Source: Candidatus Latescibacterota bacterium
GTDB lineage: Bacteria > Latescibacterota > UBA2968 > UBA8231
Assembly (NCBI GenBank): GCA_965215195.1
Contig: CBDCDC010000002.1
Location: 4,320,001 to 4,384,000, forward strand
Direction of reading: 5' to 3'
DNA: 64,000 nucleotides
Part shown: positions 34,501 through 51,946 of the stretch, one piece after another
How positions within the stretch are numbered: position 1 is the stretch's first letter
Layout: each line of letters begins with the position of its first letter
Made by a program: the position numbers and the translations under genes
The notes under the pieces: generated by a model
Told to the model about the DNA's origin: nothing
What the model saw: the letters and a program-made list of their open reading frames with translations, nothing else
Database searches by the model: none

Positions 34501-36255
34501 CTATCCAAAAGAGAGTTGCATCTGTTGATCATCTGGTCGAGTGCGAATAGATTGAGAGGAATTTTCAGTCATTCCTTTATCGCCAATGGCACTACACACT
34601 TCTCCCCAGTCGATGAAGTATTCGTCAAAATAGCGAACTGGATATTTACTGAATCTAATAATGTCCTCTCTATCGGGCCTGCGTCCCAGTTTGATAGCAA
34701 TCTCCTTGACTTCGATCTGTAGTGTTTTTTTAGGCACTTCGTACTTCTGTTTTTGTAGTCTTGCAACTCTACTGTTCTTTGCTTTTGGAGTAGTACCATT
34801 TTTTGCAAACGGATCCCTCCCTTTTTGCAGGTCTAAATGTCTCTGTTCGGCAATTGCATGATATTTAGCCGACAGTTCAATTCCAATGAATTTTCTTCCA
34901 AGCATCTCTGATGTTAAAGTCGTTGTACCTGCGCCGTTAAAAGGATCTAAAACGAGATCTCCTTCTTTGGTAAAGGTATGGATAAGTCGCTTCATCAGTG
35001 ATGGAGGTAGTTGACATGGATGATCAACTCTTTTTGAATTGTGCTTTAGCCTATGGATATCCCACCACAAATTTCCAATCGGCTGTCGGTCTGTAATTTT
35101 GTTTATATTTCTTTTTTTGATACAAGAGGTTCTAACGCAATACCATGGTTTGAGGCTCATGAAGTTTTGGGGAGTTCGCCAACTAGCTTTCTTTTCGTGA
35201 TTGGCAATTTCAATTGGCCGACCTTTACTAAAGCAAATTATTCCATAATGTGCCGGCATAATTTTTCTGATGGGTAAGCTCAATCCCTCCCAAACTATCC
35301 AATCTTGGTAATATAAAATGCTTCTCGCGAACGAAAAATGCCTGACGATCCAGAGAGGAATATTTATAATTGCAAGAGTCCGACTGGGTTTCAAAACTCT
35401 AGCTGATTCAGCTATCCATTGATCACACCATGAAAAGTAATTACTAATATCTTGGGCATCATTCCAGTTATCATATTTCTTTTTTATATTATATGGAGGA
35501 TCAGCAAAAATAAAATCTACGGAATTTTCAGGGATAGTTTTGAGGATATCTAAACAATCTCCGTTGAGTAAACGACTCCTGCCGGGGTTATTAATTATTC
35601 CGTTTGAAGAGCGGAATTTTCTCTTTTTGGAGAATGTAAGAAAGTTCCTGACATCGCAGTAAATAAGTTGGCTATAAGGTTCGTGCCCAAAGAGATCCGC
35701 TAGTCTTTCCAGAATAGCTCTTGGTGCTGTATCATTATCATAAGAAATATCGCGCCAAATATCAGACATAAGAGTCCCATAGGGGCTATAAATATGTTTC
35801 TTACCTCCGTAGTCCTTTGTTGTTTTGTTGCAGGCAGGACAGTACGTATATTCTATTTGAGTCTTGTTATGCTTCAAAGAACCCTTGTAACGGGTAAAAA
35901 CTAAGAGAGCAATATGGCCATCTGGCAAGGCCCCCAATCGCAGTATCTCTTGTTTGCGTTTGACAGCAATCCAAAGTTTGAAATAGACGCGGTTCTGAAG
36001 TTTTTCTATTATATAGCAAGCTATGTGAGGATTTGTCAAAAAACAAATTGTACTTTCTGCGGGCAATTTTTCAAGAAAATCATCGAAACCTTGCTTAAGA
36101 AATTCCACAGAAACTTTATCGTCGAGACCAATTTCTGTAGTCAAATGGAAAAGCCATACATCCGGCCGTAGTGACTTTGGCGATAATTTTTGAAAATTTT
36201 CAAATGTCCTTATTGATATATCTAAGGACTTGCAGTTTTCACTCCGGTGAGCCAT
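34501..36255 (-). CDS. Beta-class N6-adenine DNA methyltransferase with N- and C-terminal extensions
   Basis: FADPPY, HPCQLP and LDPFNGAGTT motifs; AT-rich DNA. Confidence 0.9.
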   Translation of the reverse strand: MAHRSENCKSLDISIRTFENFQKLSPKSLRPDVWLFHLTTEIGLDDKVSVEFLKQGFDDFLEKLPAESTICFLTNPHIACYIIEKLQNRVYFKLWIAVKRKQEILRLGALPDGHIALLVFTRYKGSLKHNKTQIEYTYCPACNKTTKDYGGKKHIYSPYGTLMSDIWRDISYDNDTAPRAILERLADLFGHEPYSQLIYCDVRNFLTFSKKRKFRSSNGIINNPGRSRLLNGDCLDILKTIPENSVDFIFADPPYNIKKKYDNWNDAQDISNYFSWCDQWIAESARVLKPSRTLAIINIPLWIVRHFSFARSILYYQDWIVWEGLSLPIRKIMPAHYGIICFSKGRPIEIANHEKKASWRTPQNFMSLKPWYCVRTSCIKKRNINKITDRQPIGNLWWDIHRLKHNSKRVDHPCQLPPSLMKRLIHTFTKEGDLVLDPFNGAGTTTLTSEMLGRKFIGIELSAKYHAIAEQRHLDLQKGRDPFAKNGTTPKAKNSRVARLQKQKYEVPKKTLQIEVKEIAIKLGRRPDREDIIRFSKYPVRYFDEYFIDWGEVCSAIGDKGMTENSSQSIRTRPDDQQMQLSFG

Positions 36256-36256
36256 T

Positions 36257-37291
36257 TTAGTTACCTCCTTCCATAGTTTCTGCTAGACGTCTAATATCGC
36301 CGTCACTAAGATTGATGATACAGTCGCTGTACTTGATTAAGTTCTTCACAAAAGAGCGGCGTTCAAAATTGCCAGCACCATCAACTACATACGCAATTTT
36401 ATGCCCTTTTTCACGAAGAAGCCTTTGTCTATCAGGAGCGGATTGAGCTTTCCTTTCTACTACACTGTTTGTAGTAAATTGAAAACTCACTTCAATACCC
36501 CAATAATTACCATTAGGACTTTTACCGACGATGTCAAATTTTGTATCTGTTCTACCTTCGGTCTGGCTGATGCTTGGAATCGTGGTTTGTGAGAAATCCC
36601 AACTCGGGAGATATTGAGCCAACCGCTCTTTTACATAATTCTGAGCGAGGTAACCCATCCTGTTGGACGTTGCACCTCCAGTAATTCGACTAACTAAGAT
36701 ATATCTTTCTTTAATATATTTTTCCAACCTTGGTTTGTCGCCAATCATTGAACCAATAATACATTTGTCTTCGATTTCCTTTGGTAAAAAATCATTCGTT
36801 GACAAACCACCAAATAAAATCAGGGTACTTACGTCAACAATAGAGTCTGTAAGGTCAAAACGTTGCTGGATTCCCTCTCCGTCAAGCCCTAAGCTGGGAT
36901 TACTCCACCTTCTGCCACAAAAAAGAGATTTCATCTCGTAATCGTAATTTTTGCCACGAAAGGTGAATTTGAAATTCTCGTACTTAAATTTTTCTGGAAG
37001 CTCTGCTGCAAAGCGTTTTAAGTTTTCTCCGCTGATATCGGATAAAATGCAAAGATGTTTTAAAAAAAGATTTGGATAGAGATCTTCAACAAAACCTAAA
37101 ATCTTAGTCCAATCATAAGGAGCTTTATATCCAAGTTGGAGCATACTTATAAAACTATCTTGCGTTTTAAGAAGCAGAGGGATAATACTAGAATTCTTCT
37201 CTTGCTTGGCGATTTCAGATGGCCAATAGATTACAGCATTTTCCTTCAGTTCTTCTACTGTTTCAGGATTAGGCATTACCAGATTCTCCAT
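36257..37291 (-). CDS. Type II restriction endonuclease (PD-(D/E)xK-like)
   Basis: FD...IEVSFQ.TTNS..ERK and VVDGAGN motifs; directly upstream of the methyltransferase; AT-rich. Confidence 0.75.
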   Translation of the reverse strand: MENLVMPNPETVEELKENAVIYWPSEIAKQEKNSSIIPLLLKTQDSFISMLQLGYKAPYDWTKILGFVEDLYPNLFLKHLCILSDISGENLKRFAAELPEKFKYENFKFTFRGKNYDYEMKSLFCGRRWSNPSLGLDGEGIQQRFDLTDSIVDVSTLILFGGLSTNDFLPKEIEDKCIIGSMIGDKPRLEKYIKERYILVSRITGGATSNRMGYLAQNYVKERLAQYLPSWDFSQTTIPSISQTEGRTDTKFDIVGKSPNGNYWGIEVSFQFTTNSVVERKAQSAPDRQRLLREKGHKIAYVVDGAGNFERRSFVKNLIKYSDCIINLSDGDIRRLAETMEGGN

Positions 37292-39281: not shown

Positions 39282-41104
39282 TAGACTAGGTGCTCCATGA
39301 TGTAGTCGCGGCGTTGCGGGGTGTTTCTACCCATGTAAAAGGAGAGGGTCTGCGGCACGGTGTCTAGCGAGCGCACAGCGACCTTGACCAAGCGCATGTC
39401 GCCGTTGATAAACTGCCCGAATTCCTTGGGGGAGATTTCGCCCAAACCCTTGAAGCGAGTGACCTCGACGCTGCCCTTGAGCCGGTTCTCGGCGCGCTCG
39501 CGCTCGCGCTGGTCGTAGCAATAGAGGGTCTGGCGCTTGTTGCGCACCCGGAAGAGCGGGGTCTCCAAGATGTAGAGGTGGCCGCTGGTCACGAGCTCCT
39601 CGAAGTACGTGAGGAAGAAGGTCATCAGCAAGGTGCGGATGTGGAAGCCATCTTCGTCGGCATCCGTGGCCAAGATGACGCTGTCGTAGCGCAGATTTTC
39701 CACGTCCTCTTCAATGCCCAGCGCCATCATCATGTTGTACAGCTCTTCGTTTTTGTAGATGGCGGCGCGGGTTTTGCCACAGAGGTTTTGCGGCTTGCCC
39801 TTGAGGGTGAAGATGGCTTGGGTCTCCGGGTCGCGCGAGGAGACGATGGAGCCAGCGGCCGACTGACCCTCGGCGATAAAGATCATGGAATCCTCTCCGC
39901 GCTTCTTGTCGCCTTTGTGGTACTTGCAGTCCTTGAGCTGGGGAATTTTGATCTCAATGCGGCGCGCGGCCTCCTTGGCTTCCTTTTTAACTGCGTTCAG
40001 CTCCTTGCGCAGCTTCTCATTGTGGATGATGCGCGCTTCGAGCTTTTGCGCGGTCTCCCGATTTTTGTGCAGGAAATCGACGATGGCTTCGCGGGTCTCG
40101 TTGACGATCCAGCCGCGGACGTCGGTATTGCCCAGCTTGTTTTTGGTTTGCGACTCGAAAATCGGCTCCTTGACCTTGACGGCGACGACGCCAAAGGCCC
40201 CATCGCGGACATCGACGCCGTTGAAGGTTTTCTTGTAAAATTCGTTGACGCCCTTGAGTACGCCTTCGCGGAACGCGCTCTGGTGGGTGCCGCCGTCGGC
40301 CGTGTACTGGCCGTTGACAAAGGAACGGTAGGACTCGCCGTAGCTATGGACGTGGGTGAGGGCAAATTCGAGGTATTGGCCCTTGTAGTAAGCGGGCGGA
40401 TAGAAAACCGAGTCGCCGGCTTCGCTTTTGAGGAGGTTGAGCAGGCCCTGTTTGGACTCGAATTTTTGGCGGTTGAAGTACAGGCGCAGGCCCTGGTTGA
40501 GGCAGGCGTAGTTCCACATCCGGCGCTCGACGAACTCGTGGTTGAAGGCGAATTCGCCAAAGATGGCCGGATCGGGCAAAAACTCGACGTACGTGCCGTC
40601 GGGCGCGTTGGGCGCTCGGCTCTTCTTTTGCTTTTTCAGCTCGCCGCGCTCAAAGAGCACTTCGGCGCACCGGCCGTCGCGGTAGGAGCGGACAGCGAAG
40701 TGGGCCGAAAGCGCGTTGACGGCCTTGGTGCCGACGCCGTTAAGCCCCACGCTGAACTGGAACACATCGTCGTTGTATTTGGCACCGGTGTTGATGACCG
40801 AGACGCACTCTACTACCTTGCCGAGGGGAATGCCGCGGCCGTAGTCGCGGACCTTGACCCGCCCCTTGTCGATCTCGACGTCGATCTGCTTGCCACAGCC
40901 CATGATGAACTCATCGACGGCGTTATCGACGACCTCTTTGAGCAAGATGTAGATGCCGTCGTCGGAATCGTCCCCCGAGCCGAGGCGGCCGATGTACATG
41001 CCGGTCCGCAGACGGATGTGTTCAAGCGAAGAGAGGGTCTTGATCTTGCTTTCGTCGTACGTGGCCTTGCCGTTGGCGCGGCTGTTGATCAGAGTCTTGG
41101 CCAT
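39281..41104 (-). CDS. parE: DNA topoisomerase IV subunit B
   Basis: EVVDNAVDE, DYGRGIP, GLNGVG, EGQSA, TDADEDG and RFKGLGE motifs. Confidence 0.9.
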   Translation of the reverse strand: MAKTLINSRANGKATYDESKIKTLSSLEHIRLRTGMYIGRLGSGDDSDDGIYILLKEVVDNAVDEFIMGCGKQIDVEIDKGRVKVRDYGRGIPLGKVVECVSVINTGAKYNDDVFQFSVGLNGVGTKAVNALSAHFAVRSYRDGRCAEVLFERGELKKQKKSRAPNAPDGTYVEFLPDPAIFGEFAFNHEFVERRMWNYACLNQGLRLYFNRQKFESKQGLLNLLKSEAGDSVFYPPAYYKGQYLEFALTHVHSYGESYRSFVNGQYTADGGTHQSAFREGVLKGVNEFYKKTFNGVDVRDGAFGVVAVKVKEPIFESQTKNKLGNTDVRGWIVNETREAIVDFLHKNRETAQKLEARIIHNEKLRKELNAVKKEAKEAARRIEIKIPQLKDCKYHKGDKKRGEDSMIFIAEGQSAAGSIVSSRDPETQAIFTLKGKPQNLCGKTRAAIYKNEELYNMMMALGIEEDVENLRYDSVILATDADEDGFHIRTLLMTFFLTYFEELVTSGHLYILETPLFRVRNKRQTLYCYDQRERERAENRLKGSVEVTRFKGLGEISPKEFGQFINGDMRLVKVAVRSLDTVPQTLSFYMGRNTPQRRDYIMEHLV

Positions 41105-41671
41105 TGTTTCTAATAATATAGTAGAATGAGCCGCGCCTCAGTGGGGGAGGGACGCGACTGGCGGACAATGGGAGCGATTAAAATGAAGGAGAAAACAGAA
41201 GCATAGGAGGAGAGCAGAAGGGGTAGCCACTCTCCTTGGTGCAACTGCTAGTTCAAGAAATTCTCCGTTTGCTTAATATAGTGAACATAAATGCAGTTGT
41301 CAATCAAATGCAGGTGTGGGCAGAAGCGGTGATTTAGCGACTTTGCTGTATCTTTTGGGAACGGTAGTGTTACAGAGGTGATACACTTTGGCGTATCGAC
41401 TGGTTGGAGCGGAAGCTGTGGCGACAAAAAATCTGGATTGGCTAACCTACCTAATTTCAAGGAGTTAGCGAATACCAACGACGGCTCAGTCTATCTGGTG
41501 TGCTTCTTGGCACGTTTTTCGCTTTTGTTCCCGCTGAGGCCGAGACCTCAGTCGTGCTTCAAACCATCTTCAACTAGAGGTATATTTCAATTGCTCGCAT
41601 CTATAAGAGAAAGATTGGCATCAAGGTTATTGTGGTGGAGCAGTGGCCTCAGAAGATCCTCGGAAACCAAT

Positions 41672-44059
41672 ATGTTGGACCGTAGCACATTATCTATTCT
41701 AGTCCTATTCCATGGATGTAGCTCCGTTCATACTAGACGAGCTTGTGAGATCGCCCGACAATTACGACACCGAGGCTACGAGGTTCGGCTAGCAGGAGAT
41801 GGGCCTTATGCGGAGCAATTTTCCCAAAAGGGAGAAGAAATATGCAGTGTTGAAACATTGCCTCTAGATATTCACCGAGACCAGACTGAGCTATTGGACT
41901 ATAGGTCGTGCGATACTGAATGGATCGATTCTTGCGTAAAATCCGAACGGTCTTTGATTGAGGAGTACAAGCCCGATCTAATTATACACTCCTTGAAACC
42001 AACGGCTTCAGTTGCAGCATATTTGGAAGGTGTTGACGAAGTTGAAATAATCCAAGGATACGATCAACCAGGCGGTCATCTTCCTCTTCAGACCCTATCT
42101 GTACTACCATCGCGAGATACGTTTGCAGAATACTTAAAAAGCAAAGTCTGCGAAATCAAAAAAAGAAATAAGTACTTCCTAATCGCCGATATACCCGATC
42201 TATATCCTACACTAGAGTTTAGTGCTAGTGGATTCCATTATATAGGACCTCTTTTGCCAGCCATGAGAAAAAAAAGAGACGGACGGAAGGTGATTCGCAA
42301 ACGGGGTACACCATTTCCTACCGTCTATATAAAGGATCCCAAAAATCTCCTAAGAGAAGATATACTTAGACAAGTTGAGTCCGGGACAAAGATGCCTTAT
42401 CGCTTACTAGTAGAATCTACCAGAGGAGTAAAATGGTCTAAAAGCCGTGTAGAGTTTGTCGACGAAAGATATAGAGAGCCACCATGGGAAAGAATACGTA
42501 TAATAGTTGGAGATTTAGATATAGAGACTCTATACAGTGCTTTATCTCATGGAGTTTTGCCTGTCGGTATAGCTACTACTTTAGACCAAGAGCTCCATCT
42601 CGATAGACTCGAAGCAGTTAATCTGGGTTTCAAGATAGATCCAGATATGTTTAGCTATCATATTGTTACACAAGCAGTAGGAAAAATACTAGATACTTGG
42701 GATAAAATGGAGGTTCGATTAGAACACGTTGTTAAGATCTTGGAAAGATGGTATACAAAAGATGTCGTCGCTGACTGGGTAGATAATTATTTTGTGAACC
42801 GGCATACGGTACTCCGTTACGATCCCAGATTTCTAGTAAGCGAAAACGAATTCTTACAGCAACTCGACGGCACTACTCCCTCCACGCTATCAATTGAGTC
42901 ACTACGTAAAATGCTACAGCAAGGTATTCAAAGAGGAATACCTCACTGGCGACAGGGCAATCAGTACTTCTTCGACATAATAGATTCTTGGAACTGGCTT
43001 TACGAAAAGGAAGATCGATTTTTCGAGGCTGAATACAGAGCCTGTGATCAAAGGCGGAGTACCTTCTTCGATATAGATGAAATGGGCAACATACGTTCAA
43101 AATCTCATATTCAACGCTATAAAGTAACCTACTCTTACGACATACACCTCACTGAAAAATCGGATCAACAGTTAAGAGCTTTTATACCATATCCTTTAGA
43201 GACAGAAGAACAAAAGGCAGTTAATCTAATTAGCTGTTTCCCAGAGGATATGAGAGACTATTTACGCGGCAAGTTTGGATTCTTCTACGCGTACCCTTTC
43301 ACTGCAAATTCGGCAAATTTTTCATATACTTGCGAACTTGAAGTCAGTAAGTACAATGCTAAAGGTAGGGGTGAGTACATCCTCCCAGAGTGGGAGAGAT
43401 CGAGATATTTGTACACCGGCGAAGGCTTGGCAAAACTTCCAGAGTTAGATCAAATGCTCTCTGAGATACTCGAAGCATCTGCGTCCTGTGATAAAAAAGA
43501 ACTAGCTTGGGCCTTCTACAGCAAACTAGTCAGAACCAAAAAATTCAGAAAGACTAAACCACCTGCGATGGGTCTAGTTGATAGTTCAGCTACCTTACTA
43601 AATAGTAGCGGTGGTAATTGTATTCACTTTGCCAGAACCTTTATATCTCTGTGTCGAATGGTAGGTATTCCTGCTCGGGAGAGATGTGGAACCTTGTTAG
43701 GATACCCAATTTCTGAAAAGGTGTACGAATACAGCAGTATAAACGAGCCTATAATAGGCCACACATGGGCCGAAATCTACCTAGAAGAAGCAGGCTGGAT
43801 ACCCGTCGAATTCCTCAGTGTGGCTATCGGCGAAGTTTCTATAAACGAATACAATATCAAGGATCCTAAATTAAAAAAATATATAAAGCAAAATAATCGC
43901 TCTTTTGAATCTTATTATTTTGGCCATTTAGATAACCAACGACTCATGTTTTCCAATTCTGTGAAGACACTACCTCTATGCTTAACAAAAGGTGTGGATG
44001 AATGGGAACCTCTTCCAAACATACAATGCCAATATCGTATGAGAGTGGAGTGCATATAA
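41672..44059 (+). CDS. Fusion of GT-B (GT1-like) glycosyltransferase and transglutaminase-like domain
   Basis: N-terminal H..R...IARQLRHRGYEV, KPDLII, YIGP and LDQ; C-terminal GGNCIHFA..F..LCR..GIPAR, GHTWAEIY and GWIPVE. Start moved to ATG 41672. Confidence 0.8.
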   Translation: MLDRSTLSILVLFHGCSSVHTRRACEIARQLRHRGYEVRLAGDGPYAEQFSQKGEEICSVETLPLDIHRDQTELLDYRSCDTEWIDSCVKSERSLIEEYKPDLIIHSLKPTASVAAYLEGVDEVEIIQGYDQPGGHLPLQTLSVLPSRDTFAEYLKSKVCEIKKRNKYFLIADIPDLYPTLEFSASGFHYIGPLLPAMRKKRDGRKVIRKRGTPFPTVYIKDPKNLLREDILRQVESGTKMPYRLLVESTRGVKWSKSRVEFVDERYREPPWERIRIIVGDLDIETLYSALSHGVLPVGIATTLDQELHLDRLEAVNLGFKIDPDMFSYHIVTQAVGKILDTWDKMEVRLEHVVKILERWYTKDVVADWVDNYFVNRHTVLRYDPRFLVSENEFLQQLDGTTPSTLSIESLRKMLQQGIQRGIPHWRQGNQYFFDIIDSWNWLYEKEDRFFEAEYRACDQRRSTFFDIDEMGNIRSKSHIQRYKVTYSYDIHLTEKSDQQLRAFIPYPLETEEQKAVNLISCFPEDMRDYLRGKFGFFYAYPFTANSANFSYTCELEVSKYNAKGRGEYILPEWERSRYLYTGEGLAKLPELDQMLSEILEASASCDKKELAWAFYSKLVRTKKFRKTKPPAMGLVDSSATLLNSSGGNCIHFARTFISLCRMVGIPARERCGTLLGYPISEKVYEYSSINEPIIGHTWAEIYLEEAGWIPVEFLSVAIGEVSINEYNIKDPKLKKYIKQNNRSFESYYFGHLDNQRLMFSNSVKTLPLCLTKGVDEWEPLPNIQCQYRMRVECI

Positions 44060-46572
44060 TGGACATAAGTGTAATTGTAGCCACATATAATCAGAAAGAA
44101 CGTCTCCGTCTCGTGTTGAGAGGTTTAGAAAGTCAGAGTATTCCAAACGATCACTTTGAAATACTAGTGGTTGACGACGGTTCAACAGACGGTACTGGAG
44201 CAATGCTGAAATCACTGAAGATGCAGAATCTCGAAGTTGAATCTTTTGAAACGAACCAAGGCCGCTGCCGAGCACGGAACAAAGGAATTGAACGGGCACA
44301 TGGTTCGTTAGTCGTTTTTTTAGATGGAGATGCATTACCGGCTCCGAATCTACTCCAGTGCTACTTAGAAGCCTATAAAGAGAATGGTCAGAAATCAGTA
44401 TTTTGTGGGTACCAGTATGTCCTTCCCAATCTAGAGTATTTCCAAGATCCTCAGACAGGTTCTCTCTTGGATATCTCGCTGCCTTATTCACTGCGTCGGC
44501 ACTTGGCTCTACATCGAGATAAGATGATTGTCACAGAGGATATGGTATGCAATGAGTTCGATAGTATTATTGAAAAAGCAGTAGAAGGAGGCTATCCGTT
44601 TGAAGCAGTTCGTACTATGCAGCGAGAATCTCTCGATCTTTACGAAACTGTCGCAGAACCGGCACTAGGCTGGATTGGATTATACCCTCACAATGTGGCC
44701 ATACCGTTAAAGCTACTAGAAAAAGTAGGGAAATTCGATGATACCATACCTTTTTGTGAAGGATGGGAACTTGGCTATCGCCTAAAGGCGGCAGGTGGAC
44801 AATTTATCAGTGTCCAAGCCTCTTCTTACCACCTATACCATCATCATAATTTCTCCGATCCTGAGAAAGCAAAAGCCGAAAGAGTGAAGCGATATGCTGC
44901 GGTTGAGTACATAGCCTGCAAACATAGCGACCCCTTGGTGCGTCTGATCCACTTCTGGTGGGCACATCTGTGGCCTAATCCTTTTCTTCCAGAGGAGTCA
45001 GTTATAGACAGTCTGATTGAATTTGACCATATCTACCGAACTATTTCTGAAACAGATAGAAAAGAATACCAAGAGATCCTAGATGCACTTCCACAGCTTG
45101 ACCTAGATACCGAGCTTCCTGCTCATTGCAAATTTAGCTCTGCTGAAAGTAATGTATCCGAACTAGTTGACCAGCAAGATGGTCCTGAAGAATGGGAAAT
45201 CATTTTAGCCTCTGCTGACGAGCACTGGCAAAACGGTCGTCTAGAATCCGCCTTATCCCAAATCGAACTAGCAAAAGAAGTTAACCGTCTTCGGGGTGGT
45301 ACAACTATAGGATTAGCTAACATACTGATCTCCCAAGGCAAAGTTTACGAGCTGAAAGGCGAATTAGACAAGGCAAATCAATGTTATGATGAGGCCATAT
45401 CAATTTTTTCACAAACTGAGGATGATGAGAGTACAAGGAAGCTAGCTGTAGGATATACCTGCAAAGGGTTTATCACACAGCTACAAGGAAATCTCACTGA
45501 GGCTGCTGATTTTTATATAAAAGCACAGAGCCTTAACAAAAAAATAAATTGTCGAGAAGATTATGCCTTAGTTACTAGCAACTTGGGTACTGTGCATTTA
45601 CTAAAAGGCGACTTGAATTCAGCAGAGAAACTTTACGAGGAATCTATAGCTATTTACAAAGAAATTGGAGACTCCGAAGGAATTGCTAGCCAGTACAATT
45701 CACTTGCAAATTTAAGAAAAATTCAAGGCCGTATTTACGAAGCACGTACTCTACTGGAACAGGCTATTGGTATAGATAAAAAGATGGATAGAAAAGAGGG
45801 ATTGGCATTGCATTATGGATTATTTTCCTCGATACACCTTCTAATGGGAAATATGGAAGAAGCACTAGAGTGCGGCAAAGCTGCTTTAGAAGCTAATCAA
45901 AGCTTGGCGGATGAAAAGGGAAAAGCGTACTCATATAGAATACTAGCGAATGTGCATTTCTATCGTGGGGATTTTCCTCTGGCAGAATCTTATCTGCATC
46001 ATTCTATAAGCCTATTTGAACGTATAGGTATGTCATCCGATGTGATTGAGTGTTATTTATCTCTTGGAAAATTGTACGCTCATAGTAAAAAATTTGATAA
46101 AGCCAAGGAATTCCTATGCAATTACCTACGCCTTGCTCCAGACTCGCCTAACCAGCAAACTATTGCTGCAGCCCGAGCTACTTTAAGTCTCGTATATATC
46201 CAATGCGGACAATATGAAGACGCGTACCAAGAGCAGAAGACTGCACTGGGGATATACGAAGCCGAGGACGATGAAAAGGGCACCGCCTACGGATTTGCTA
46301 GTCTAGGCGAGATACATCAGCTTAGAGGACAATGGATTGAAGCAGAATCTTGTTATAGTAGAGCTCTGTCTATATGCAAGAAGATAGGTGACGAACTCGG
46401 ACAAGGGCTTGCCTATATGGGGATGGGAGATGTGGCTGCCCAAAAAGAGTCAAAAGCAAGAGCTGTCGCTTTGTGGACGATGGCATCAAAAATTTTCGCC
46501 GGAATGAATATGTATAACTACGCTGACCGAGTCGAAGAAAAGATAAAGACTGTTCAAGGATCAGAACTATAG
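44059..46572 (+). CDS. GT2 glycosyltransferase with long C-terminal TPR array
   Basis: SVIVATYN, VVDDGSTD, ARNKG and FLDGD motifs; repeated NLG/A...Y..A TPRs; TAATG coupling to the upstream gene. Confidence 0.88.
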   Translation: MDISVIVATYNQKERLRLVLRGLESQSIPNDHFEILVVDDGSTDGTGAMLKSLKMQNLEVESFETNQGRCRARNKGIERAHGSLVVFLDGDALPAPNLLQCYLEAYKENGQKSVFCGYQYVLPNLEYFQDPQTGSLLDISLPYSLRRHLALHRDKMIVTEDMVCNEFDSIIEKAVEGGYPFEAVRTMQRESLDLYETVAEPALGWIGLYPHNVAIPLKLLEKVGKFDDTIPFCEGWELGYRLKAAGGQFISVQASSYHLYHHHNFSDPEKAKAERVKRYAAVEYIACKHSDPLVRLIHFWWAHLWPNPFLPEESVIDSLIEFDHIYRTISETDRKEYQEILDALPQLDLDTELPAHCKFSSAESNVSELVDQQDGPEEWEIILASADEHWQNGRLESALSQIELAKEVNRLRGGTTIGLANILISQGKVYELKGELDKANQCYDEAISIFSQTEDDESTRKLAVGYTCKGFITQLQGNLTEAADFYIKAQSLNKKINCREDYALVTSNLGTVHLLKGDLNSAEKLYEESIAIYKEIGDSEGIASQYNSLANLRKIQGRIYEARTLLEQAIGIDKKMDRKEGLALHYGLFSSIHLLMGNMEEALECGKAALEANQSLADEKGKAYSYRILANVHFYRGDFPLAESYLHHSISLFERIGMSSDVIECYLSLGKLYAHSKKFDKAKEFLCNYLRLAPDSPNQQTIAAARATLSLVYIQCGQYEDAYQEQKTALGIYEAEDDEKGTAYGFASLGEIHQLRGQWIEAESCYSRALSICKKIGDELGQGLAYMGMGDVAAQKESKARAVALWTMASKIFAGMNMYNYADRVEEKIKTVQGSEL

Positions 46573-46627
46573 TGTAATATCATAAGGCGATACCTTCGCA
46601 AAAGGCGAGTAATAATTCCTATCAAGT

Positions 46628-47173
46628 ATGACACTTTGTAAAAGTAAATTAACAATTGGAGCGGCTATAATATTAGTCATTTTTTTTGCTGCTACCTTGC
46701 AATTAATCGCCGTGTTCGTTACGAATGAAAGCATATACCGTAACGCGATGGCGTGGTTGAAAGGTGCGGAATACGAAGGAACGGAAGGAGTCGTTCTACA
46801 GACACGTAAGATGAATTGTGGTCCTGCATCTCTTAAAATGGTCTTGGATAGCCTAGGTATAGACCAAGAACTTACAGATATTGAAGACATGATTAGATTG
46901 GACGAGACAGGTTCTTCTTTATTCGACTTGATGAAATACGCCGAAAGTCAAGGAGTACATGCTGAAGCTTGGAGGCTAAATATAGATGACCTAGAGAGCA
47001 AACCACTTCCTGTGGTAGTCTTTATTGAGGATGATCACTTTGCTGTGCTGGACCAGATCAACGAACACGGTGAGGTCATCTTGCGAGATCCAGCCATCGG
47101 CAGGCTCAGAATTAGGAAATGGGCATTCAACCGTATATGGAAAGGAGAGACTTTGATATTGACAAAAAAATAA
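46628..47173 (+). CDS. Stand-alone C39 cysteine peptidase with N-terminal TM anchor
   Basis: LQ....NCGPASL, HFAVL, DPA.G and F...WKG motifs; no ABC domains. Confidence 0.88.
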   Translation: MTLCKSKLTIGAAIILVIFFAATLQLIAVFVTNESIYRNAMAWLKGAEYEGTEGVVLQTRKMNCGPASLKMVLDSLGIDQELTDIEDMIRLDETGSSLFDLMKYAESQGVHAEAWRLNIDDLESKPLPVVVFIEDDHFAVLDQINEHGEVILRDPAIGRLRIRKWAFNRIWKGETLILTKK

Positions 47174-47175
47174 AA

Positions 47176-47579
47176 CATTCACCATGTGGAGGTAGGGGTT
47201 GTCATCTTCTCTTTTAAGAAAGGAGAACATCATGACCAAACTTATCAACACGAAAGGTGTAACAGCTCTGGCGACAGCCTTGGGCTTATGCGCCTACAGT
47301 ATCGCACCTAGCAACAGTGCCATCATCTCCAAGCCTATTACGCCTTCTGAGGCTCGGGACATCAAGGGTGGCATTCTCCCTTGGGCACTGGTAGGTTGGG
47401 CCATAGCAGCTGACGTCGCACTCACAGTTGGTGCGATGTCCCTTTACGGGAATCTAGAGACTTCAAGGCAACAACGAGAAGGATCTTACGCCCGCAACCC
47501 GTAAGAAGACTGAAAAACAACAAACAAAACCTGTAAGAAGCTAACCTAGGTGAAACCCGCAACCTCTACATGGTGAATG
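47176..47579. repeat. About 29-nt imperfect inverted repeats (47176-47204 and 47551-47579) flanking the precursor gene
   Basis: CATTCACCATGTGGAGGT versus reverse complement CATTCACCATGTAGAGGT (17/18 match), extending imperfectly. Confidence 0.85.
47232..47504 (+). CDS. Double-glycine RiPP/bacteriocin-like precursor with an additional signal-like N-terminus (90 aa)
   Basis: AGGAG SD; ITPSEARDIKGG leader motif; hydrophobic core; lies next to the C39 peptidase. Confidence 0.8.
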   Translation: MTKLINTKGVTALATALGLCAYSIAPSNSAIISKPITPSEARDIKGGILPWALVGWAIAADVALTVGAMSLYGNLETSRQQREGSYARNP

Positions 47580-47582
47580 GAC

Positions 47583-47620
47583 GAGCTACCAGTCTTTTCA
47601 TCGAGACTGGTAGCTCAAAA
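47583..47620. terminator. Perfect 13-bp hairpin (terminator or mRNA stabiliser)
   Basis: GAGCTACCAGTCT...AGACTGGTAGCTC followed by AAAA. Confidence 0.65.
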
Positions 47621-47821
47621 TCTTCGCTAACTAAGAGAAGGACTCTACGACTTTGAATGCCTTAGTGTTTCTTTTAGGGATGATTCAGCCTATCGCCTAT
47701 AAGGCGAGGGTCGCTTTAGTTGGGCTGAATGGTCTTTTGCATGTTGAGCAATTTTCGGTGTCATGCTATGGACTATGAGGTTTTACCACACTATCTTAAG
47801 GTATTGGTTCGGACTTGAGGG

Positions 47822-48661
47822 GTGTACTTCAAGCATTTAGAAGAGGCAGGTGTACTCATGAAAAAAATCCGTACAATGGACCAACACATTTATCCCTTAT
47901 TTACCAGAAAGTTTGAAAATATACGATGTAGGACATTTTCTACCTTTCTACTAGCTATTTTTATGTTCTTCTTTTTTCGCTATACTGTCGATACTATACT
48001 TAATCTATTCGCTTTGAGCGACTACCTTCTCATATTATTATGTACTATTCCTTATGTTTTACTTATTTTAATTGTCGTGGCATTCTCTAAGATAGAGAAA
48101 CAGGATCTGACCATCCAAACCTTGGGATTATCCCCTCAAATTCCCAGAAGATCAAAAAGATTCGTTTTGACGTTTATTTTTTTATCGTTAGTATCCGGAG
48201 TAGGTATATTGGTCTTTTTCCTTTACATGAAGCTCCAAGGGATTGATATCCACTTAATACACCCCAACCCTACTCTAATACCTTGGACTGAGGAAGCCGA
48301 CTGGGATGAAAAATTTCGTACTATATTTCTCCTTATTATTCCATATTCAGTTCGTGCTTTATTGATTGCCCCTGTTATAGAGGAGGCATATTTTACAGGC
48401 CTGATTTTCCCTGCTCTAAGGAATCGATTGGGGTTCGTTCTCGGCTTCACTATTACCGCTTTTCTCTTCAGCTATCACCATTACTCTCCGTTTTTAGAAG
48501 GACATCTAAGGGAATTTATCATTATGTTTATGTCACAAAGTCTTTCATTTTTTTTCTATCAGGGTACGCGCTCTCTTTATCCTTCTATAATATACCATTC
48601 TTTACGCAATATGTCAGTTTTGGCTATTGAACTCTCAGCCTTTATCCCAACTCAGTCCTAA
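47822..48661 (+). CDS. CPBP/Abi (CAAX-like) intramembrane protease, possible immunity factor
   Basis: APVIEE..F.G, F...HH and SIIYHSLRN motifs; start uncertain. Confidence 0.85.
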   Translation: MYFKHLEEAGVLMKKIRTMDQHIYPLFTRKFENIRCRTFSTFLLAIFMFFFFRYTVDTILNLFALSDYLLILLCTIPYVLLILIVVAFSKIEKQDLTIQTLGLSPQIPRRSKRFVLTFIFLSLVSGVGILVFFLYMKLQGIDIHLIHPNPTLIPWTEEADWDEKFRTIFLLIIPYSVRALLIAPVIEEAYFTGLIFPALRNRLGFVLGFTITAFLFSYHHYSPFLEGHLREFIIMFMSQSLSFFFYQGTRSLYPSIIYHSLRNMSVLAIELSAFIPTQS

Positions 48662-48786
48662 TTAGCACAGGAAAAACCTTCGGTGCCGTTTTAAGCTTAT
48701 GGTTAGTCTAGTATATATCAAATACGTTCTTAGTGAATACGATGTTATGAAAATAAATCCATCTCTTTTAATAAGGAGGATAACTC

Positions 48787-49488
48787 GTGGAAGCCGCACT
48801 CCAGACTGAAATCGGCCTCGTCGGCCGCATGATCCGGATCTTCTACGCACCCAGCAAGACCTTTGAATCCTTCGCTCATAAGCACAGCACTGCCGACTGG
48901 CTTATGCCCGCCATTCTGAGCACCGTAGTTGCCACAATTGCTGCCGTGCTCGTCATGCCCGTCACGACTGAGTTCAATCAGGAGGCCATACAACAGCGTA
49001 TTCAGGGTATGTCTGCTCAACAGCGAGAGGCAGTAGAGCAATCCCAAATCGAGGGTATGATACAGGCCATTACGCTGATCTCCACACCTATTGTGCTTTT
49101 CATTTTTCTTTTTCTTTTTGCCGCGTCTTGCCTACTGATGGGCAAATTACTCGGCGGCCTACTCTCCTACGGCCAAGTCCTAACCATCGTAGCCTATGCG
49201 GGGTTGATCGCTATTCCCCAACATATTGTCAAGACATTGCTAATATTGGCCAAAAAGACACCGATGGTGCAAATGGGCTTGGGGGTGTTCCTCTCCGAAG
49301 AGGCCCTACAAAGCTTCAGTGGTCGCTTATTGTCTCTCATTGATCCCTTTGTCGTTTGGAGCGTTGTGATTACTGGTCTCGGTCTGTCCATTGTCGGACA
49401 GTTCGATCGCAGCAAAGCCTACACTGGGATTGGTGTCATAATGATTGTTTGGTTTTCCTTCGCTGCTGCCCTAGGTAGTATCGGCTAG
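48787..49488 (+). CDS. YIP1-family membrane protein
   Basis: IFYAPSKTF and IDPFVVW motifs; about five TM segments; AGGAGG SD. Confidence 0.8.
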   Translation: MEAALQTEIGLVGRMIRIFYAPSKTFESFAHKHSTADWLMPAILSTVVATIAAVLVMPVTTEFNQEAIQQRIQGMSAQQREAVEQSQIEGMIQAITLISTPIVLFIFLFLFAASCLLMGKLLGGLLSYGQVLTIVAYAGLIAIPQHIVKTLLILAKKTPMVQMGLGVFLSEEALQSFSGRLLSLIDPFVVWSVVITGLGLSIVGQFDRSKAYTGIGVIMIVWFSFAAALGSIG

Positions 49489-49492
49489 TCTT

Positions 49493-49705
49493 TCGGAGCA
49501 TGCCCTTGAACTGTTCGCCAAAGAGGAAATCCGCGATCCCTTCCAACCCTCTTGGGGCTACGACGAAGCCTGCGCTCGATTGGGTCTCATGCGTCAGGAG
49601 GCCGGCGACATCGAGGGAGCGCGGGAAGCCTTTGTCAAAGCCCTCGAAGTGAATCCCAACAACGGCTGGGTAAAAAACCACTTATTACCGGAATTGGAGC
49701 GCTAG
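49493..49705 (+). pseudogene. Start-less C-terminal fragment of a TPR protein paralogous to 51968-52753
   Basis: Translates ELFAKEEIRDPFQPSWGYDEACARLG...AREAFVKALEVNPNNGWVKNHLLPELER*. Confidence 0.75.
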
Positions 49706-49711
49706 TACGCA

Positions 49712-51946
49712 ATGAATAAAAGATGCACCGCTCGACAGGCCGAGATCGTCCTGTTCTGCGTTTCCTTACTCGCTGGGCAGACCTTTGCCCAGAGCAAGGC
49801 TTTCGTACAGGGGCAGGTCGTCGACGAAACCGGACAGCCGGTCGCCTTTGCCAACGTACAAATCATCGACACTACCGACGGCTCAGTAACAGGCCGCGAC
49901 GGCCGTTTTGTCTTTTCTACCCGGCACCTTGGATCACGCGACCTGCACGCCACCTTCATCGGCTTTGAACCTGCCCGGCAGACCCTACACTTGATCGCGG
50001 GCGACACCACACTGGTGCGCTTGGTGCTGCGGCACTCCCTCATTGAACTCGGTGAAACCGTCGTCACAGTTAGCACCTACACCACCGGGGAGGATGAGAC
50101 CGTCACCCTCTCGCCTTTAGATGTATTGACGACGCCTGGGGCTTCGGCCGATATTTTTCTCGCGGTCAAAACCTTTCCCGGCGTTGCTACCGTACATGAC
50201 GGTGCCGGTCTTTTTGTCCGCGGGGGCGACGTGAGCGAGACCGTCGTTTTGCTCGATCAAGCTACGGTGGTGCATCCCTACAGATACGAATCGCCCACCG
50301 GCGGAGTATTCGGCACGATTCCCTCCTTTATGGTGCAGGGCACGGTTTTTTCCACAGGTGGATTCTCCGCCCGCTATGGCAATGCGCTTTCCGCGGTGCT
50401 GTCCATGGAGAGCCTAAACATGCCCGTGCAACGGAGCTATAGGCTCGGTTTGGGCCTCGCTGCCGGCTCTGTGGGCCTCGACCTGCCTCTTATTGACGAT
50501 AAGCTTGGCCTGCGCTTTACGGGCAATCGCAGCTTTACCGATCTCATGCTTCGCGTCAACGGTCACCGCAGCGAATTCACTACCACTCCACGCGGCCACG
50601 ACGGCAATCTCAACCTAGTGTACAAATACTCACCGACCGGACGCCTCAAACTCTTCAGCTTCAACGCGGGCGACCGAATCGGTGTGCGCGTGGTCGAGCC
50701 TTCGTTTGACGGCCAGTACCGAGACCGTACCGATAACTACTTGCACAATGTTCAGTGGACGGATGTATGGGCCGATTGGTTCATCCAGACCAGTGCCTCG
50801 CTCAACCGGCACACGGCCCGGCGGCAGTTGGGCAGCCTAGACCTGACCCCCCGCGACTGGACCGGCAAAATTCGCACGGACTGGGAACGCGCGCTCGGAG
50901 CTTTCGGGATCATGCGCCTCGGTACCGAACTGGAGCACGCTGACAACAGCTTCGTGGGCAGCATTCCTCAGGACGATGTTCTCGACCCCGAGGCAGAGAC
51001 ATTTGAACTCGACACTTCCTACAGTGCCCGGCGCACTGGTGCCTACTTTGAGGTTGATTTCAAGCCCGGGCGTCGCATCGTCGCCAATGTCGGTATGCGC
51101 GCCGACCACCACAGCTTGAGCGACGATTTTGTCCTAGACCCGCGCCTGTCTGCGCGATACCAGTTTTCCGCGAACACAAACGCTCGGCTCGCTTGGGGCA
51201 TCTATCACCAATTCCCCGCCCCATTTGAATACAACCCCACCAGCGGCAACCCCAATCTAGGGCCCCAACGCGCCCAACACTGGGTAGGCGGCTTGCACCA
51301 CGAACGCGGACAATTCCTAGTACGGCTGGAGGCTTACTACAAACCCTACCGCAATCTCGTCCTGGATCACCCCGACCTAAACCTTGCAAACGCGGGTAAA
51401 GGCCGGGCTTCTGGTGTTGACCTCTTTTGCAAGTACGGCGCTTTTCTCAATACGCGCTTGAGCGGGTGGATAGCCTACAGTCTGCTGCGATCGCGCCGAT
51501 TGCAGGTGCGCCACCTAGGGTTTGAGATGCTCCGCGAAGAAGCTCCTTCTCCGTTTGATATTACGCACAACCTGACCTTGGTCACAAAGGGGCAGATCGT
51601 CTACGCCCTCAGCGGCGGCCTGACTCTGAGATACGCCACCGGACGCCCCATCACCCCAATCGTCGATGCCGTTTCCGTAGCAGATAAAAGCTACTACCTG
51701 CCCGTAGAAGGACCTGTCGGCTCAGAACGGCTGCCGTCCTTTCAACAGATAGATGGGCAATTGAGCTACGTGCATTTCTTTGGCAGCGGTCACCAAGCGG
51801 TCTTCTACTTGGCGGTCAACAACCTGCTCAACCGCGCCAATGTGCTCGACTATGATTACAGCATCGACTATGCTCAGCGCCAGCCACGCACCGCCATCTT
51901 TCGCCGCTCCATTTACTTTGGCACCACCGTCTCTCTGAACTATTGA
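49712..51946 (+). CDS. TonB-dependent receptor with N-terminal carboxypeptidase-regulatory-like domain
   Basis: GQVVD..G.PVAFANV, LFVRGG, FSTGGFSARYGNALS and PRLS motifs; terminal aromatic residue. Confidence 0.9.
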   Translation: MNKRCTARQAEIVLFCVSLLAGQTFAQSKAFVQGQVVDETGQPVAFANVQIIDTTDGSVTGRDGRFVFSTRHLGSRDLHATFIGFEPARQTLHLIAGDTTLVRLVLRHSLIELGETVVTVSTYTTGEDETVTLSPLDVLTTPGASADIFLAVKTFPGVATVHDGAGLFVRGGDVSETVVLLDQATVVHPYRYESPTGGVFGTIPSFMVQGTVFSTGGFSARYGNALSAVLSMESLNMPVQRSYRLGLGLAAGSVGLDLPLIDDKLGLRFTGNRSFTDLMLRVNGHRSEFTTTPRGHDGNLNLVYKYSPTGRLKLFSFNAGDRIGVRVVEPSFDGQYRDRTDNYLHNVQWTDVWADWFIQTSASLNRHTARRQLGSLDLTPRDWTGKIRTDWERALGAFGIMRLGTELEHADNSFVGSIPQDDVLDPEAETFELDTSYSARRTGAYFEVDFKPGRRIVANVGMRADHHSLSDDFVLDPRLSARYQFSANTNARLAWGIYHQFPAPFEYNPTSGNPNLGPQRAQHWVGGLHHERGQFLVRLEAYYKPYRNLVLDHPDLNLANAGKGRASGVDLFCKYGAFLNTRLSGWIAYSLLRSRRLQVRHLGFEMLREEAPSPFDITHNLTLVTKGQIVYALSGGLTLRYATGRPITPIVDAVSVADKSYYLPVEGPVGSERLPSFQQIDGQLSYVHFFGSGHQAVFYLAVNNLLNRANVLDYDYSIDYAQRQPRTAIFRRSIYFGTTVSLNY

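Follow-up and report, generated by a model that had tools for sequence, protein, structure and literature searches.

The 64,000-nucleotide stretch of contig CBDCDC010000002.1 analysed here (the window) comes from a Candidatus Latescibacterota bacterium, an uncultured marine-type organism, and holds a gene island that may direct the synthesis of a peptide made on ribosomes and modified after translation (RiPP). Five open reading frames (ORFs), all on the + strand, occupy positions 41672-48661, with a GC content of 0.417 versus 0.60 for the genome. They encode a fusion of a GT1-type GT-B glycosyltransferase (GT) domain, a winged helix and a transglutaminase-like (TG) domain (gene A, 41591..44059, 822 aa), a GT2 domain fused to a MalT-like TPR array (gene B, 44059..46572, 837 aa), a stand-alone C39 peptidase with an N-terminal hydrophobic anchor (46628..47173, a 181-aa ORF in an open frame of 185 aa), a 90-aa double-glycine precursor (47232..47504) and an Rce1-like CPBP membrane protein (47858..48661). 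The original prediction, which proposed a dedicated five-gene RiPP class, had placed these co-oriented genes in AT-rich DNA and called the domains of A, B, C39 and CPBP in agreement with Pfam. It was likewise right that A and B are translationally coupled, the stop of A overlapping the start of B (TAATG), and that the 43-aa core of the precursor has no Cys. Absent from that first description were the Sec-like N-terminus of the precursor, the anchor of the C39 peptidase, the winged helix in A and a 12-bp stem in the precursor transcript.

The borders of the island are defined by comparison with relatives of the same genus. Upstream, the DNA is 75-84% identical to these relatives, the identity stopping at ~41561-41568, and the match resumes from 49495. 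Because relatives match the two ends at ~41568 and 49495, the island (41569..49494, + strand, GC 0.424, junctions taken from all four fetched relatives) comprises six genes, the sixth being a Yip1/YknW-family membrane protein (48787..49488, + strand) beyond the five first described. All six are under purifying selection, with ratios of nonsynonymous to synonymous substitution (dN/dS) of 0.18-0.37 against three orthologous loci (L002-L004; L and G numbers denote loci and genomes). The same gap holds another cluster in each of the four fetched genus relatives. In G130 this cluster consists, by Pfam, of ThiF, nitroreductase, YcaO, CPBP, ABC-2 and ABC-ATPase-TPR genes with poly-Cys precursors, which identifies it as a linear azol(in)e-containing peptide (LAP) cluster. 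Among 29 parE loci of the genus, a LAP precursor is found in 21 (17 of which also show the LAP ThiF gene inside the fetched flank), gene A in three and neither in five. Directly downstream of the island, a headless remnant (49495..49705, + strand) matches the C-terminal TPR of the ABC-ATPase-TPR gene, the last gene of the displaced LAP cluster. The remnant and the occupancy of the slot in relatives therefore record the replacement of one peptide cluster by another behind a common upstream region (41105..41568, + strand, shared with relatives that carry the LAP cluster here), which presumably supplies the promoter of the island. This replacement fits a peptide-product role for the island and does not prove modification. 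A LAP/TOMM (thiazole/oxazole-modified microcin) cluster with precursors of 6-8 Cys is the usual occupant of the slot in the genus (L152:500-8840 in G130; L153-L155).

The named relatives are Ca. Latescibacterota metagenome-assembled genomes; two more loci bear other labels, one Poribacteria and one Planctomycetota, of which the Planctomycetota locus is identical with the contig of family member G114. Scans of the locus for sigma-70 promoters and terminators gave chance-level results only, and an Rfam search of 41000-50000 gave no match. The sequencing runs listed for the stretch include no RNA run; four DNA-type runs of one study contain it.

The C39 peptidase is readily assigned to its family (Peptidase_C39, E 7.7e-28; PCAT1, E 1e-13), and its Gln58, Cys64 and His137 are invariant (8/8). 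All eight C39 proteins have an N-terminal hydrophobic segment (KD19 1.7-2.8), from which the catalytic domain may face the periplasm, but the charge bias of the segment is mixed. The island C39 is the sole C39 of the genome and it is stand-alone; therefore no peptidase-containing ATP-binding cassette transporter (PCAT) or other C39-ABC fusion is encoded anywhere in the genome. As the original prediction held, the island also has no PCAT/ABC exporter and no thiol-disulfide oxidoreductase.

The precursor begins with a Sec-like segment (residues ~1-29) in which a basic stretch is followed by a hydrophobic one ending at a conserved Pro. Then come a double-glycine leader with Ile-12, Ala-7, Ile-4 and GG at residues 46-47, and the core (47373-47501). 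The same three leader residues are present in 14 of 16 precursors, the other two having Ala or Thr at -4, and a GG/GA/GS cleavage motif is present in all 16. Leaders cut by C39 peptidases carry hydrophobic residues at -4/-7/-12 before GG/GA/GS (PMC10885120). It is very probable, from these motifs, that the C39 cuts this precursor, and likely that the precursor takes the Sec route. The core is a hydrophobic helix with conserved Asp61 and Tyr72 and a Gln-containing polar tail; it has five Ser/Thr and no Lys, and Cys is absent from all 16 cores. The leader is more constrained than the core (dN/dS 0.07-0.19 vs 0.31-0.54). The precursor profile found six proteins among 1.84 billion representatives, all of them of the precursor family, and the Atlas gave nothing for the precursor at 0.9 or above (best 0.87). 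A match to TIGR03949 (class IIb bacteriocin) was rejected at 13 bits versus a cut-off of 21.5. One precursor homolog, P0045 (121 aa), has an internally duplicated leader-GG-core start.

In their catalytic Cys/His and in their leader type, the C39 and precursor resemble the PCAT, or AMS (maturation and secretion by ABC transporters), systems PCAT1, LahT and ComA. They differ in that the C39 is free-standing with its own anchor, that the genome has no C39-linked transporter domain and that the precursor has an added signal-like segment. Double-glycine peptides are described as leaving through PCATs (PMC10885120); the missing exporter would here be explained by Sec export to a periplasm-facing C39. 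A precedent is Pseudomonas FapD, an active periplasmic C39 with Sec substrates whose target that study left open (PMC5557850). FapD and NCBIfam FilB share with the island the stand-alone C39, which in the island may likewise be exported and act on a Sec substrate, and they are the NCBIfam matches of the stand-alone C39s (E 3.6e-11 and E 8e-9, both below cut-off). Unlike the FapD system, the six island genes include no FapF-type channel, amyloid repeats or fibre subunits; the island instead has one short hydrophobic peptide with CPBP, Yip1 and the GT/TG genes.

The precursor gene is enclosed by a long-range stem between its 5' and 3' untranslated regions (UTRs). The 5' arm (47178..47189, + strand) pairs with a 3' arm at 47566-47577, which is followed by a strong hairpin at 47583-47616 (together 47566..47616, + strand). 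The 12 pairs form completely (100%) in 11 of 11 loci, down to a precursor identity of 30%; nine of the 12 pairs never vary, and one two-sided change is seen, in a single lineage. A duplex test, which folds the UTRs in their entirety, did not for that reason beat shuffles at most of the distant loci. In this genome the stem (z -8.3) extends to a 32-nt inverted repeat (47176-47207 / 47548-47579). A further hairpin (47208-47228) covers the Shine-Dalgarno sequence of the precursor in this genome's fold and is not conserved in the consensus fold.

A closed mRNA stem suggests high stoichiometry, and the mature peptide might then be a structural membrane or fibre subunit of pilin-like type, matured by a periplasmic C39 and possibly glycosylated, and not a toxin. 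The FapD and FilB matches and a core made of a hydrophobic helix and polar tail point the same way. We consider this very unlikely, as genes for assembly or for an outer-membrane channel are absent from both the island and L086-L088, the site of the island is a RiPP slot, the core is more variable than the leader, and the precursor profile matched no solved structure and hence no solved pilin. A released, bacteriocin-like peptide is preferred.

Gene A probably starts at TTG 41591, which has a Shine-Dalgarno sequence upstream and is used likewise in homolog P0001; its residue numbers below count from ATG 41672. Pfam gives Transglut_core (E 1.8e-14) and weak GT-B matches. By models and fold searches the GT-B domain is nearest YjiC (alignment E 9e-21), and some of the residues expected of such an enzyme are in place: His20 is kept, and an acidic residue stands at the Asp305 position, in 12/12 clade members. 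The HGGxNS stretch, which is the diphosphate-binding loop of GT1 enzymes, reads GDLDIET in gene A and is acidic and glycine-less in 12/12 clade members. The Asp of the His-Asp dyad is Asp106 in YjiC and Ngt-1 (PMC13214531); it aligns with Ser107 of gene A, a position that is Ser, Thr or Cys in 12/12 clade members and Asp or Glu in all 20 gene A homologs outside the clade. A second gene A clade lacks the GT-B His, and degeneration of the GT1 domain is seen in two of three clades. The domain is nonetheless under purifying selection (dN/dS 0.22-0.25). Since its catalytic residues are altered yet the domain is constrained, it is called a probable pseudo-enzyme or altered-donor domain.

Residues ~385-440 of gene A are modelled as a small winged helix with weak fold matches to many proteins (Z 4-5). 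These include DNA-binding winged helices such as phage Xis (Z 4.2, root mean square deviation (rmsd) 2.6 over 51 residues, a weak match). Within A, constraint is strongest in this domain (dN/dS 0.09-0.14), which has no Pfam match, and no helix-turn-helix (HTH) Pfam family matches any of 34 gene A members. The RiPP recognition element (RRE) fold starts with three strands, and an RRE assignment of this middle domain was dropped, the model being helix-helix-hairpin-helix. In the TG domain, the triad Cys650, His697 and Glu713 (Glu/Asp) is kept in 32/32 homologs, and Transglut_core matches 34/34 members. The closest fold (Z 14.7, rmsd 3.7 over 240 residues) is that of 3ISR, a putative cysteine protease from Cytophaga. 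Structural neighbours of the domain span transglutaminases, proteases and acyltransferases, and the chemistry of the domain is therefore not fixed by its fold. For the C-terminal half of A, the Atlas has only unnamed Transglut_core clusters of 418-456 aa, and a sequence search for stand-alone winged-helix/TG forms gave seven proteins, without gene context. The two halves of A thus share folds with GT1 enzymes (YjiC, OleD, Ngt-1) and with transglutaminase-like proteases (3ISR, TgpA, lasso B2), whereas gene A fuses both via a winged helix and has an altered dyad Asp and UDP loop.

Gene B matches Glycos_transf_2 (PF00535, E 3.5e-26) and TPRs, and the GT2 DxD is kept in all 32 listed homologs. Among the cassette loci inspected, the fusion of GT2 and TPR is restricted to this clade; the others have separate GT2 and TPR ORFs. 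At the level of architecture, B resembles Listeria GmaR, a cytoplasmic GT2-TPR protein that glycosylates exported flagellin (PMC9638930); GmaR acts on flagellin and has no transglutaminase partner. SunS faintly matches the GT2 domain (E 0.009). A complex prediction for full-length B with the precursor scored 0.01 and was weighed neither way.

Among the closest known systems, a GT2 beside a double-glycine precursor and a C39 domain is found in the glycocins (sublancin/SunS, glycocin F and enterocin 96 type). Their definition (PMC10125368) includes two nested disulfides in the core, a core glycosylated at Ser, Thr or Cys, a GT2, and clustered disulfide oxidoreductases and PCAT. The island is not a glycocin system because it has no Cys, no oxidoreductase and no PCAT, and so no disulfides; in addition it has a Sec-like N-terminus, an anchored C39 and a TG fusion protein. 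In its available sections, a review of RiPP proteases shows transglutaminase-like domains only as lasso leader proteases, and for Latescibacterota from sponges, the available part of one paper names no clusters beyond generic RiPP-like ones (PMC12993501). A literature search, mostly without subscription papers and supplements, found no description of the cluster or of the A/B pair. The original prediction that the locus fits no described RiPP class is thus borne out so far as searched.

The chemistry envisaged by that prediction was that both GTs are active on the core and that the transglutaminase closes an isopeptide ring, in a dedicated five-gene class. The five genes have indeed been inherited together for long: all six fetched loci of this A clade, spanning two genera, hold C39 and precursor, with A, B and C39 56-58% identical to those of G114. 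The constrained GT1 domain, with its conserved His20 and acidic Asp305 position, also speaks for two enzymes, and the new N-terminal amine could be an acyl acceptor. However, although both GT folds are detected, neither the dyad Asp nor the glycine loop of the GT-B domain survives in any of the 12 clade members. An isopeptide within the core is unlikely, as Lys is absent from 10 of 13 cores linked to the GT genes, this one included, and the new N-terminus would be generated only once the peptide is exported, out of reach of an enzyme in the cytoplasm. The dedicated link between GTs and precursor did not hold either. In one Latescibacterota family, 32 of 76 genomes carry the GT2 domain, at 71 places in all, and only 4 of these adjoin C39 and a precursor, an outcome that the original prediction itself had named as refuting it. 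Taken together, these findings make the ring-closing, dedicated scheme highly improbable.

We instead favour, with a probability of roughly one half, the reading that A and B form a portable peptide-tailoring cassette (module 2) captured by a bacteriocin-like module of C39, precursor and CPBP (module 1) with Sec export and periplasmic C39 cleavage, and that the product is not a glycocin. The precursor family occurs in 7 of 168 genomes of the phylum, and stand-alone C39 orthologs occur in the same seven, always adjacent. A G143 match to the precursor profile (E 0.007) was treated as chance. Strong A homologs are distributed differently: 33 of the 76 genomes of the family have them, with as many as six in one genome, and a search of the 92 other genomes of the phylum gave none. 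Besides the island, the genome studied here contains five more copies of the cassette, in one of which A is broken, and a single C39 gene. In the precursor family, all 13 GT-linked cores have a Tyr at Asp+10/+11 and a Gln in the core, whereas the three GT-less cores have Phe at that position and two of them have no Gln; the three belong to one lineage and count as one event. On balance, it is slightly more likely than not that the cassette modifies this peptide. The island is probably a case of cassette capture by module 1 rather than the result of cassette loss in G111, G112 and G115, three genomes with GT-less module 1.

The peptide neighbours of the cassette were examined in 34 other loci (19, five from the same genome and 10 more), a selection based on the highest-scoring place in each genome. 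In 28 of the 34, filter and eye or homology revealed a small ORF whose N-terminus is signal-like. A blind peptide filter was positive at 13 of the 19 loci versus 14.5% of random 20-kb genome windows; the loci are kin and amount to about four lineages. These peptides belong to groups without relation to one another: two or three are Cys-rich and one is Asp-rich. The Asp-rich (family IV) peptides lie 300-400 bases upstream of A, behind sigma-54 activators and with a histidine kinase downstream. A profile of six of them found four new places, three of which are directly upstream of an A homolog; a G111:C77 match has an internal stop and was treated as chance. The TG and GT2 trees (29 and 26 rows) agree in their strongly supported groups, and within each such group the peptides are of a single kind. 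Diversity is greatest among the Asp-rich loci, which the TG tree does not resolve as one clade; they are the best system for testing the cassette. More tentatively, it can be proposed that Latescibacterota own a portable RiPP tailoring machine, consisting of a GT1-like/winged-helix/transglutaminase protein, a GT2 without its usual base and a TPR, that would modify at least five unrelated Sec-exported peptide families in the cytoplasm before export, the island being its capture of a double-glycine peptide that a periplasmic C39 matures.

The Asp-rich, signal-bearing peptides, which have a conserved Tyr and a Pro-rich end, lie directly upstream of A homologs (L073:8513, L074:11406-11642, L075:8515, L076:6979, L079:7905, L085:7034 and 7361, L156, L157, L158, L160), flanked by sigma-54 Reg_prop activators on one side and a histidine kinase on the other. 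Cys-rich peptides with a signal form large repeated arrays around cassette copies (G000 C2:2150000-2190000, 2365000-2392000 and 2765000-2783000; L077, L078, L080, L082). Some of these peptides are fused to a FlgD-type tail, and FG-GAP/FlgD, DUF4159, A24 peptidase and thioredoxin genes lie around them. Repeats of a ~300-aa secreted protein without Pfam match, a peptide with 4-6 Cys and two ABC-2-type permeases adjoin cassette copies (G000 C1:786000-803000 and C2:73000-99000; L067-L072, L081, L083, L084). Plasmid searches gave generic matches only.

A number of findings weigh against cassette capture by a Sec/C39 module. Module 1 occurs without either GT gene in G111, G112 and G115 (three of the seven genomes), at the same chromosomal site as in G114, with no A or B match anywhere in these genomes (completeness 94, 84 and 73%), and the GT-less precursors have Tyr elsewhere in the core. 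The same genomes also count against the dedicated link of GT genes and precursor in the original prediction. The signal segment of the precursor shows only moderate hydrophobicity (KD17 1.5-2.2) and lacks a conserved AxA site. In GT2 enzymes the Asp of the ED motif is the catalytic base; this motif aligns as EG in all 32 listed homologs of B, in a weak alignment against chondroitin synthase, a possible sign that the acceptor requires no base or that the chemistry is unusual. No peptide was found at six of the 34 cassette loci (L072, one in the same genome, L163, L164 and two cut by contig ends). The peptides share no residue motif, being Cys-rich, Asp-rich or hydrophobic, and one common cassette chemistry is therefore not evident. 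The match between clades and peptide kinds could be expected from synteny or shared ancestry alone. Finally, genes for larger secreted proteins (FG-GAP/FlgD, DUF4159) and sigma-54 or two-component genes are likewise present at cassette loci, and either could be the real partners of the cassette.

If so, the peptide would be released unmodified and the cassette would be a regulatory or sensing unit or act on other exported proteins. In the regulatory variant, the TPR would bind a peptide signal and the Xis-like winged helix would bind DNA, as GmaR doubles as a regulator. Module 1 standing alone in three of seven genomes and in L097/L098, the strong constraint on a winged helix that weakly resembles Xis, the sigma-54 activators and histidine kinases flanking family IV peptides and the degenerate GT1 domain in two of three clades can all be read in this way. 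It is harder to reconcile with the TG triad and GT2 DxD being kept throughout, with an island that has no regulator or other secreted protein as a target, and with the lack of any HTH family match among the 34 A members. We regard it as unlikely and retain cassette capture as the preferred reading.

Module 1 and its relatives vary in their neighbours. Where A and B would be, G111 and G112 have a second CPBP, of canonical type. A signal-like N-terminus and GG leader beside an anchored C39, with unrelated cores, recur in the distant loci L096/L099/L101 and L100, and L091 has a signal-plus-GG peptide near an exported C39 fusion. The cores at L096:761-1019, L099, L101:470-730, L100:1031-1231 and L091:1387-1713 contain Cys, and no glycosyltransferase lies in the DNA examined there.

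The last two island genes encode membrane proteins. The CPBP protein (Rce1-like, E 7e-12) probably starts at ATG 47858; its EE and HxxxN are present in the window and in 8/8 orthologous loci, and FxxxH is aligned in seven of the eight. CPBP motif 1 is EExxxR (bioRxiv 10.1101/2023.06.07.544157), and its Arg is replaced in the window and in all eight orthologous loci, in the latter by Thr in seven and Ser in one. The protein may serve in immunity or make a second cut. The Yip1 gene follows CPBP in 3/3 same-site loci and is absent from L086-L088; a role in self-protection is possible. SdpC of Bacillus is exported by Sec. It gives rise to a hydrophobic 42-residue toxin, SDP, whose protection system includes the Yip1 protein YknW (PMC4887032). 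Compared by description, SDP and the island share a short hydrophobic peptide and a Yip1 protein; SDP, however, has a disulfide and no C39 or GT, and YknW works with an ABC pump that is absent from the island. An antagonistic role for the peptide is somewhat favoured. A 67% identical paralog of the island CPBP (G000 C2:4143360-4144130) lies in low-GC DNA, surrounded by Yip1/ABC genes and remnants of transposases; no C39 is close by.

Read from the genes, motifs, co-occurrence, slot and stem, the activities, topology and biological roles may be arranged as follows. The precursor would be made from a transcript segment closed by the UTR stem, which would probably give it stability and an excess over the enzymes. 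In the cytoplasm, A and B would form a complex that grips the precursor with its TPR and winged-helix domains. A sugar would be added by the GT2 to the polar half of the core, on Ser/Thr or Tyr72, and the TG domain would either act on a tail Gln, deamidating it or joining it to an outside amine, or serve as a peptidase. The GT1 domain may be retained as a scaffold or binder and not as a normal UDP-sugar transferase. The N-terminal hydrophobic segment would route the precursor through Sec, an ABC exporter being unneeded, and the membrane-anchored C39 would cut after Gly47 on the periplasmic side to release a 43-aa membrane-active peptide, with CPBP and Yip1 providing self-protection or a second cut.

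If the more tentative proposal of a portable tailoring machine is correct, it would define a new class of RiPP in which a transglutaminase-like enzyme does the modifying and no exporter is dedicated to the peptide, a class likely to be missed by exporter-centred genome mining. A cassette of TG-like and GT2-TPR proteins that follows many Sec-exported peptides would add both a new chemistry and a new route. G114 versus G111, G112 and G115 offers a natural experiment, in which one precursor family is found with and without the cassette at one site, and the anchored C39 with its matching leader allows a direct substrate test for the periplasmic C39 class. Elsewhere in the window, on the far side of parE/parC, a second AT-rich insert (34501-37291, - strand) reads by eye like a DNA methyltransferase and a restriction-enzyme-like ORF.

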